DNA from: a virus
Lineage: Duplodnaviria > Heunggongvirae > Uroviricota > Caudoviricetes
Virus record (IMG/VR): IMGVR_UViG_2778261165_000003
Coordinates: 1-4,855 of that record
Direction: 5' to 3' (one strand)
Length of the DNA: 4,855 nucleotides
The notes under the pieces were generated by a model, which saw nothing but the letters and a program-made list of their open reading frames with translations, was not told the origin of the DNA and made no database searches. The translations under genes were made by a program, and so were the position numbers. Positions within the stretch are counted from its first letter, which is position 1. Each line of letters starts with the position of its first letter. This document shows positions 1,334 through 3,226 of the stretch, in pieces.

Positions 1334-3226
1334 TTAATACTCCGTCACGTTTTCCTGTCGCCACGCCTCGTCATATTCCGATTTCGGCATATTGGCGATG
1401 TAGCTATATGGCGATCCTGATTCAAGTTGCAGGAACTGGTGCGATTGCTCGTCAAGGAACAACGGGACACCACCTTCCCAACCTTCGCCGTTACGTTGTT
1501 TTTCAAGCATCAAAACAGATGCCGGAGATGCCAGTAGCTGTTCGTCCTTCTCTGACATCTTTTCACCACTCTGAACTCTCTGTAACGCTCTCTCGCGAGC
1601 CTTGTTACGCCAGATGATGAAAAGGTTGTCTGTCAGGTCTGTTATCGCTCCAGAGCCTTTTACGTCCATTTTCCCGGTTGGTTTTTCTTCGCTGTCTCCT
1701 TTTCGCGAGTGAGTAACGAGAATGACGTGGGAGTTTGTTTTGTTTTTGAAGTCGCAAATCGAGTCAACAAACGCCTTCTGCCCGTTATAGTCATCGTCGC
1801 CTATGCCACATTTCATCAGGCTGTCGATGATGAATAACTGGATCCCGTATCGGCGGCGAGCGTAGTCGAATATTTCGATCAGCCTGTCGGCTTTCGCCGT
1901 TCCGGTCAGGCAAAACACCCAAAGTCTTTCGTCATAAAATTTAAATGCAGAGTCAATTTCCAGCACTGGCGGCATCTTGCAGCACGTCGCCTGACGGGTA
2001 AGGCGCTTAAGGAGAATACCAGGCTTCAGCTCAAGTGACGCGATGCACGTCTTCACACCCTGACGCATTGCCTCAAGTGCCATATGCCCGACAACCTCCG
2101 TTTTTCCGTGACCGTTCACACCATTGACCAGCGTCAACTCTGCCTCACGGAACTGGAATTTATCTGCCAGAGATTCCCACGGTGGATTAAACAGATACTG
2201 CTGCTTGCCGTAGAAAGCGTTGATAGTGTCCTGGTAAAACTCTCGCGCGCTGTAGAGTTCTTCAGGATCGAAGTAGGATGCCGTGCCGATGTACTGCCAG
2301 ATTTCATCCTCGGTAACACCGTTCATCAGGCATTCGTTGATGTCTTTGTACGGCAGAGTAACAAGACGGCAACGATGTTCACCGAGTCGGCTTGCGATTT
2401 CCCTTGCGGCTTCACGACCAACATCATCAACGTCCATCGAGATGAATATTTCCTCAAACCTGTCGAGGTTGTGATACTCAAACTCAATCCACTGTTGCTT
2501 AGCGCCTTTCCCGCCACCAAACGGCACGGATAACGCCGAGATGCCGTATTGCGCATAGCTCATACAATCAATTTCGCCTTCGCAAAGTACAACCGCCCTC
2601 ACGCCAGCGTCCAGAGCCTGCCATCCGAACAGACAAGGTTCGCAATCACCTTCTGCCATAATGACTTTCTTCCCGTCCGGGCGCTCAGTGCTGATTCGCT
2701 TGACCTGCAACAACTCACCATCGCGTTTGTACGGAATCACCAGAGCATCCAGTTCCAGCTCTCCATTCCACACCTTGCCGCTGACAACCTCGTAGCGCTT
2801 TACGATTTCTGGCGATATGCCACGCGATTGCAGGTACTCAAGATGGGATTCTGTTCTGGTAACGTAGCGGGCGATTTTCTTGCGATCAGGTCTGGAGAAT
2901 TTTTTCTCACGTCTGGCATCGAAATGGTGATCGTCATCCTTGATACCGAGAAATGCTTTCGCTTCCTGCATAGCCTGATGCAGGTTAATTCCTCGACATG
3001 CCATCCACAAATCAAGCATGTCACCGCCGTCTCCCTCAGCGAAATCAGCCCATTTTTTCTTGCCGCTAAGGTTGACCTTAAGGCTGTTTCCCTTGTCACC
3101 GTTGACGTTACCGGCAACCCACTCATGCCCCTCTTTCTTGCCGTTTGGCAACAGGTGCGGAGCCACCCTGTCAACCTGCGACCAAAGCAGGTCGCTGAGT
3201 TCTGATGGACTCAAAGGTGCCTCCAT
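1334..3226 (-). CDS. Bifunctional DNA primase-helicase (TOPRIM primase fused to a RecA-fold SF4 DnaB/T7 gp4-like helicase)
   Basis: 630-aa ORF with GAGG 6 nt upstream of the ATG at 3226. TOPRIM signatures: VVLCEGEIDCMSYAQYG (conserved Glu) and FISMDVDDVGREAA (DxD). Helicase signatures: Walker A LVNGVNGHGKTEV (GxxGxGKT), Walker B IQLFIIDSL, then HVILVTHSRK and GSGAITDLTDNLFII, matching the SF4 motif order. The N-terminus has a DnaG zinc-ribbon-like segment lacking the Cys ligands. Confidence 0.9.
   Translation of the reverse strand: MEAPLSPSELSDLLWSQVDRVAPHLLPNGKKEGHEWVAGNVNGDKGNSLKVNLSGKKKWADFAEGDGGDMLDLWMACRGINLHQAMQEAKAFLGIKDDDHHFDARREKKFSRPDRKKIARYVTRTESHLEYLQSRGISPEIVKRYEVVSGKVWNGELELDALVIPYKRDGELLQVKRISTERPDGKKVIMAEGDCEPCLFGWQALDAGVRAVVLCEGEIDCMSYAQYGISALSVPFGGGKGAKQQWIEFEYHNLDRFEEIFISMDVDDVGREAAREIASRLGEHRCRLVTLPYKDINECLMNGVTEDEIWQYIGTASYFDPEELYSAREFYQDTINAFYGKQQYLFNPPWESLADKFQFREAELTLVNGVNGHGKTEVVGHMALEAMRQGVKTCIASLELKPGILLKRLTRQATCCKMPPVLEIDSAFKFYDERLWVFCLTGTAKADRLIEIFDYARRRYGIQLFIIDSLMKCGIGDDDYNGQKAFVDSICDFKNKTNSHVILVTHSRKGDSEEKPTGKMDVKGSGAITDLTDNLFIIWRNKARERALQRVQSGEKMSEKDEQLLASPASVLMLEKQRNGEGWEGGVPLFLDEQSHQFLQLESGSPYSYIANMPKSEYDEAWRQENVTEY

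Follow-up and report, generated by a model that had tools for sequence, protein, structure and literature searches.

Bacterial DnaG primases and T7 gp4 are considered to need their zinc-binding domain (ZBD) for the synthesis of primers on a template, and the domain has a part in choosing the sequences that are primed (PMC2910064 for T7). The ZBD of DnaG is that of PF01807 (PDB: 1D0Q, B. stearothermophilus; 2AU3, Aquifex aeolicus). The N-terminus of a third related protein, the mitochondrial helicase Twinkle of metazoans, is degenerate and the protein has no primase function (PMC9371709). In the present work we analysed 4,855 nucleotides of viral DNA (Caudoviricetes; IMG/VR record IMGVR_UViG_2778261165_000003, positions 1 to 4,855), hereafter the window, which is a lambdoid replication and nin region of the Shiga toxin (Stx) phage type. 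Its minus strand encodes a prophage primase-helicase. Residues 1 to about 95 of this protein are homologous to the DnaG-type (CHC2) ZBD, beyond a chance likeness; they share with DnaG both the type of domain and its fold, but the metal ligands are absent.

The gene product is a primase-helicase of the T7 gp4/Twinkle-like type. Window positions 3002-3226 on the minus strand correspond to codons 1-75 of its 630-aa open reading frame (ORF), and VAGNVNGDKGNSLKVNLSGKKKWADFAEGDGGDMLDLW to residues 37-74. Pfam places Toprim_2 at residues 213-300 and AAA_25/DnaB_C at residues 359-598. A phmmer search of PDB sequences returned T7 gp4 (E value 3e-23), the family profile matches T7 gp4 (E value 6e-57) and Twinkle (E value about 1e-46), and the protein also matches the DNA primase/helicase family phrog_239 (E value 1e-170). 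The full-length AlphaFold2 model, built from an alignment of 88 sequences, has a mean predicted local distance difference test (pLDDT) of 94.3, and with this model Foldseek found the T7 gp4 structure 5ikn (E value 5.5e-27) as well as 1Q57. Like T7 gp4, the protein thus consists of a ZBD-like domain, a linker, an RNA-polymerase domain with TOPRIM, a second linker and a superfamily 4 (SF4) helicase. The helicase domain is of the SF4 type, with Walker A and Walker B motifs, on the evidence of AAA_25/DnaB_C, the GHGKT motif and the matches to gp4 helicase structures. The position of the ZBD-like domain, N-terminal to the TOPRIM RNA-polymerase domain and connected to it via a linker, is that of the DnaG-type layout; in blocks covering residues 91-110, the pLDDT drops to 76-86. 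DnaG differs in being fused to a DnaB-binding C-terminal domain in place of the SF4 helicase found here.

The preliminary description of this DNA, made from the letters alone, had recognised a DnaG-like zinc-ribbon segment in the N-terminus, and several profile comparisons bear this out. The NCBIfam model for dnaG (TIGR01391) aligns residues 30-147 with its positions 27-155 (E value 3.2e-5). Zn_ribbon_DnaG (PF01807) is the sole Pfam match to the isolated N-terminus, there at a sub-threshold score, and it ranks first for 11 out of 50 diverse members of the family (best E value 2.9e-4). When a profile of 50 family N-termini was compared by hhalign with one of 40 gammaproteobacterial DnaG N-termini, residues 30-97 aligned with DnaG 30-97 (E value 3.7e-5; probability 71%), and the register was identical with a single DnaG sequence. 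An independent hmmsearch with the full-length family profile is colinear with residues 30-319 of E. coli DnaG, i.e., through the ZBD, the RNA-polymerase domain and TOPRIM. With the N-terminus alone, either as a single sequence or as a family profile, no match was found among PDB sequences.

The predicted structure, which the preliminary description had put forward as a check, is a confident zinc-ribbon fold with flanking helices, as in DnaG-type ZBDs. It comprises helices at residues 7-16 and 18-25, strands at 30-32, 35-38, 49-52, 59-61 and 66-68, and helices at 70-78 and 82-93. The model of isolated residues 1-105 (pLDDT 87.8) has the same secondary structure as the full-length model, and a Foldseek search of viral predicted structures led to phage primases labelled 'zinc finger CHC2-type'. 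The preliminary description had proposed alignment with ZBD profiles of T7 gp4 as well as of DnaG, and the comparison with T7 gp4 was negative. The T7 ribbon is a short C4 ribbon of the PF08273 type (C17, C20, C36, C39), while the window domain is longer, of the DnaG type, and without the Cys ligands. A short T7/P4-type ribbon was therefore considered and rejected: hhalign against T7 gp4 residues 1-80 gave an E value of 0.3, the alignment of the family profile with T7 gp4 begins only at T7 residue 50, and PF08273 (the gp4/P4-type C4 ribbon) has no match in the window protein at E values up to 10.

A further match concerns the NCBIfam model for the TraI conjugative relaxase/helicase (TIGR02760; 1960 aa). 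In window positions 2867-3226, residues 45-127 align with positions 1591-1674 of this model (E value 5.7e-5), a hint that a similar domain may be present inside some TraI proteins.

Relatives were collected with phmmer, by exhaustively searching 1.84 billion cluster representatives (clusters at 50% identity) with residues 1-200 as query. The search yielded 2751 representatives at an E value of 0.001 or below, 691 of them at 1e-10 or below. The best 150 of the 2751, together with fragments from other searches, made an aligned set of 269 sequences, or 212 when filtered at 80% identity. In the register given by both hhalign and hmmsearch, the DnaG ligands C40, H43, C61 and C64 correspond to G39, N42, D61 and E64 of the window protein, and the four codons were read directly in the minus strand of the DNA (Table 1). 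The model puts these residues at the two 'knuckles' of a zinc ribbon, G39 and N42 in the loop that follows strand 35-38, D61 and E64 in the turn that joins strand 59-61 to strand 66-68. Of the 212 non-redundant relatives, 208 have Gly at position 39; position 61 is Asp in 207 and Glu in the remaining 5, position 42 (His in DnaG) varies, and position 64 can be T, S, G, D, A or E. None of the 269 relatives has two or more Cys or His residues among the four sites. The preliminary description was right that the ligands are gone, and close as to what fills their places: it had listed Asp, Ala, Glu and Gly, and the residues are Gly, Asn, Asp and Glu, with A38 and A63 merely adjoining ligand positions.

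The Cys-His-Cys-Cys set which typifies the DnaG-type ZBD is thus missing. Residues 1-80 of the window protein contain a single Cys (C77), as had been noted before, and H24 and H34 as the only His residues; the next Cys residues are C195 and C198. Among the 212 relatives, the number of Cys residues within positions 26-75 ranges from 0 to 3 per sequence, at scattered positions. Cys or His occurs in 10-35% of relatives at positions 22, 24, 34, 37, 38, 52, 60, 77, 80 and 83. An alternative metal site was rejected, as seven of these positions (22, 37, 38, 52, 60, 77 and 80) were tested and showed no pattern of co-occurrence. A ligand set elsewhere in the N-terminus, which the preliminary description had named as the result that would overturn its view, was accordingly not encountered as any recurring Cys/His combination. 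The alignments indicate that the metal ligands are absent, without a replacement set elsewhere in the N-terminus.

Three of the scattered positions, 37, 52 and 60, are non-ligand sites on adjacent strands, and each is Cys in about 16-22% of relatives. Position 52 is also His in 27%; the residues of the window protein are V37, N52 and A60. These are probably no more than small buried residues.

The ligand-less domain is most probably not in decay. Relatives with only 30-45% overall identity share the motif LLPxGKxxGxEWxxGSxxGExGxSLKVxLxGxKAGvWxDFAtGExGDLLDLW and 13 nearly invariant positions (L14, L25, P27, G29, G39, G43, G46, S48, G55, W59, D61, G68 and L73). Of the 44 columns in the ribbon core (residues 26-69), 10 reach at least 90% conservation. 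The DnaG motifs that do not bind metal have been retained, i.e., E-x-x-x-S-(L/F)-x-V, an aromatic-x-D-F in which Asp stands for Cys, and G-(D/N). Thus S48, V51, the aromatic residue 59, F62, G65, G68 and D/N69 correspond to S49-F-x-V, Y59-x-C-F, G65 and G68-N69 of DnaG. The ribbon is the best-conserved portion of the 200-aa query, with a conservation equal to that of TOPRIM (Table 1). As judged from these patterns, the ZBD-like domain is under functional constraint, and ligand loss characterises a very large family as a whole and is not peculiar to the window gene. Homologue searches with the N-terminus or its profile retrieved mostly short fragments of the same family, and among them neither Cys-bearing intermediates nor a sister clade keeping the ligands.

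The primase active site has been conserved as well. In the family alignment E216, D265, D295 and R135 are invariant, and E218, D220, D267 and K176 are at least 90% conserved. E216, E218 and D220 align with E157, E159 and D161 of T7 gp4, D265 and D267 with D207 and D209, D295 with D237, R135 with R84, and K176 with K122; all of these T7 residues we take to be catalytic. T7 K128 falls near K186/K187, where the alignment is gapped. Both the TOPRIM acidic residues and the basic residues of the N-subdomain which characterize gp4-type primases are therefore present, and the primase is likely to be active. Metazoan Twinkle, in contrast, has lost its zinc ligands together with the primase catalytic residues, whereas the window family has lost the ligands only.

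The Cys-less domain is not tied to one kind of helicase. The results from tblastn analyses of phage genomes place it in temperate phages of Escherichia, Salmonella, Shigella, Vibrio, Pseudomonas, Ralstonia, Acidithiobacillus and Wolbachia. RepA of the Wolbachia phage WO (WOVitB, 2881-5001) combines the Cys-less domain (86 bits with the family N-terminal profile) with Toprim_2, found by Pfam, and a RepA-type AAA_25 ATPase. Gp16 of the Acidovorax phage Aval (2980-5658) combines it (61 bits) with a weak TOPRIM-like stretch and a VapE-type domain. Three architectures therefore carry the Cys-less domain: gp4-type SF4, RepA/AAA_25 and VapE, the helicase module of WO RepA and Aval gp16 being other than the gp4-type SF4 of the window protein. 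In P4 alpha/VapE-type primase-helicases, as in WO RepA, a ZBD and a TOPRIM primase are likewise joined to a replicative helicase; P4 alpha has a Cys-containing zinc ribbon. Because the TOPRIM partner stays while the helicase partner changes, the Cys-less domain appears to accompany the TOPRIM primase and not a particular helicase or initiator. A role in priming therefore fits better than a contact surface specific for an initiator.

Residues 1-95 are a diverged DnaG-type ZBD which has kept its fold and lost its metal site, and we consider it probable that the handling of template or primer has been retained. As to function, a zinc-independent template- or primer-handling domain of an active primase is the most likely assignment. 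The fold would be held in the absence of zinc by a conserved aromatic and aliphatic core (W36, V51, W59, F62, L73 and W74). D61, at the position of the third Cys, probably caps the backbone of the Gly-rich first knuckle (G39-x-x-x-G43-x-x-G46) by hydrogen bonds. The domain, on its flexible linker, would cooperate with the TOPRIM RNA-polymerase domain by holding the template or the nascent primer during primer synthesis, which might take place where the fused SF4 helicase opens the fork. By this means the lambdoid phage would bring along helicase and primase in one protein, where lambda has P to recruit the host DnaB.

Loss of zinc might instead have left a structural remnant that was put to new use in protein-protein or regulatory contacts, e.g., in loading of the helicase by the O-like initiator or in control of hexamer or heptamer assembly, with ZBD-dependent priming lost as in metazoan Twinkle. 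We regard this as unlikely, if worth keeping in mind: unlike in Twinkle, all catalytic residues of the TOPRIM and RNA-polymerase domain are conserved, and the ribbon is highly conserved in phages of Escherichia, Vibrio, Pseudomonas and Wolbachia whose replication modules and helicase partners differ. A surface specific for an initiator would be expected to vary, whereas the variable part is the C-terminal tail (identity 0.12). The preliminary description had expected either altered priming specificity or reuse of the domain in protein-protein contacts. The indirect evidence leans towards a retained priming role over pure reuse, because the catalytic residues, the non-ligand DnaG motifs and the constant partnership with TOPRIM have all been kept. 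Binding of another metal (Mg2+, Mn2+ or Ca2+) by an oxygen-rich set, e.g., D61 with E64 or with D66 and D69, would account for an invariant Asp exactly where a Cys was and for the frequent acidic residues at positions 44, 66 and 69. However, ligand position 1 is an invariant Gly without a side chain, position 42 varies, and so does position 64, where T, S, G and A are common, so that there is no conserved set of three or four ligands at the former site. Moreover, E44 and D69 are not new features, because they are also conserved in zinc-containing DnaG (E45 and N/D69); we hold this second metal to be very improbable. Finally, a zinc ribbon would not normally survive without its four ligands, and the segment could be a degenerating remnant that has no function by itself. 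The 13 nearly invariant positions in residues 14-73, the confident AlphaFold2 fold, and the persistence of the domain in 2751 cluster representatives and three architectures make this scarcely credible.

Several points weigh against the priming role that we prefer. The window protein scores below the Pfam gathering cut-off of PF01807 (13.3 versus 24.9 bits; E value 0.075-0.11). The stabilising role of D61, though probable, is drawn from conservation only. The comparison of conservation between segments is partly biased, since the relatives were gathered with residues 1-200 as query; despite this bias, the ribbon is far above the N-subdomain inside the same query. A literature search for biochemistry on any member of the family found none. 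Among ligand-less relatives only human Twinkle is well studied, and it does not act as a primase (PMC9371709).

Table 1. Features of the window and of the primase-helicase. Residues are those of the primase-helicase; identity is the mean identity to the query by segment, from the 88-sequence alignment.
Feature	Residues	Window positions	Strand	Mean identity	Basis or remarks
Primase-helicase, T7 gp4/Twinkle-like		1334..3226	-		630-aa ORF; ZBD-like domain, RNA-polymerase domain with TOPRIM, SF4 helicase
Complete Cys-less DnaG-type ZBD homologue	1-95	2942..3226	-		Helices 7-25, five strands within 30-68, helices 70-93
Ribbon core	26-69	3020..3151	-	0.55	Family alignments
First 'knuckle'		3101..3112	-		G39 (3110-3112, ggt) at DnaG C40; N42 (3101-3103, aac) at DnaG H43
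Second 'knuckle'		3035..3046	-		D61 (3044-3046, gat) at DnaG C61; E64 (3035-3037, gag) at DnaG C64
Linker, ZBD-like to RNA-polymerase domain	96-113	2888..2941	-	0.25	Low conservation, lower model confidence
Primase RNA-polymerase domain (N-subdomain and TOPRIM)	114-305	2312..2887	-		Conserved columns, T7 alignment
RNA-polymerase-domain N-subdomain				0.29	
TOPRIM				0.51	
SF4 (DnaB/gp4-type) helicase	346-600	1427..2191	-	0.37	Walker A GHGKT at 372-376; Pfam, phmmer, profile, Foldseek
C-terminal tail				0.12	
O-like replication initiator, HTH_36		3813..4544	-		Pfam, PHROG matches; upstream gene of replication module
NUMOD4-HNH homing-endonuclease gene, free-standing		3211..3705	-		Pfam NUMOD4, HNH_3; context, outside ZBD-like domain
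Small conserved ORF, phrog_2239 (function unknown)		1064..1333	-		89 aa
DUF7301 protein		763..978	-		
NinB		118..564	-		

Every supported gene of the window is on the minus strand (Table 1). Stx2-converting phages (phi24B, Min27 and others) match 82% of the window DNA at about 97% identity. Of 5426 complete E. coli genomes, 296 carry the primase-helicase gene with an identity of at least 95%. The sequence AGAGGA sits four bases upstream of its start codon (3226). Two plus-strand ORFs, 2549-3205 and 3018-3278, overlap positions 3002-3226 and are taken to be antisense by-products because the minus-strand gene is strongly supported. A scan of the window with Rfam detected no RNA family. The phrog_2239 ORF begins right after the primase-helicase stop codon; it is kept as a neighbour in phi24B, and a note in the phi24B record places it also in P22, ES18 and Sf6-like phages. 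Between ninB and the DUF7301 gene, window positions 565-749 are unlike phi24B 3470-3659, where lar sits; in the place of lar the window has a 53-aa ORF (597-758) with no significant family match.

The primase-helicase gene is one that has been hit by two different selfish elements, an HNH gene and an intein, in different phages. In the window, the HNH gene lies between the genes for the O-like initiator and the primase-helicase and overlaps the start of the latter by 16 nt. The insertion (window 3203-3710) stands in place of 20 bp in phi24B, which has no HNH gene, and it alters the primase N-terminus, which reads MEAPLSPSELS here and MTPSELS in phi24B. In complete E. coli genomes, HNH accompanies some copies of the gene; in others the last 24 nt are divergent, with the break at the phi24B boundary. 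The orthologue in phi24B and Min27 ('P', 968 aa) contains an in-frame intein of about 330-338 aa exactly inside Walker A (GHGK/...HN/T). Its site corresponds to window positions 2098-2103, the helicase Walker A codons, and the element itself to phi24B 5009-6038; the window copy is intein-free. The intein has already been recorded by Smith et al. 2012 (PMC3430580).

The protein itself is already known to annotators, who have named members of the family 'P', 'toprim domain-containing protein', 'bifunctional DNA primase/helicase' or 'twinkle protein', and loss of ribbon ligands has precedents, Twinkle included. Other Cys-less ribbons belong to unrelated families, none of which bears on template recognition by primases, and they are a precedent for a fold that outlasts the loss of its ligands. 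The 'C-minus' forms of ribosomal proteins, for instance, have the ribbon fold without the ligands. The C-terminal repeats of mycobacterial topoisomerase I, itself a TOPRIM enzyme, are reported to be Cys-less and zinc-ribbon-like (PMC3753633). No model in Pfam reaches its threshold on the Cys-less domain of the phage family, and our literature search, within the library covered, found no paper on it. We tentatively propose that these proteins form a very large, uncurated and zinc-independent branch of the DnaG-type ZBDs, with at least 2751 clusters at 50% identity, which may direct template-specific priming.

With a dedicated domain model, the replication modules of Stx phages, and of many temperate phages besides, would be better annotated. 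The family illustrates how a ribbon may be re-stabilised without metal and, being natural, abundant and, as predicted, catalytically intact, it offers a test of whether zinc contributes fold stability alone or more. If the proposal is true, the domain and TOPRIM would move as one cassette among gp4-type SF4, RepA/AAA_25 and VapE helicases, a cassette spread in temperate phages of proteobacteria and in Wolbachia phage WO. Structural zinc would then be dispensable for template recognition by a primase, the invariant Asp and the Gly-rich knuckle replacing the metal. More speculatively, a zinc-free primase might aid the replication of these phages in zinc-limited hosts.

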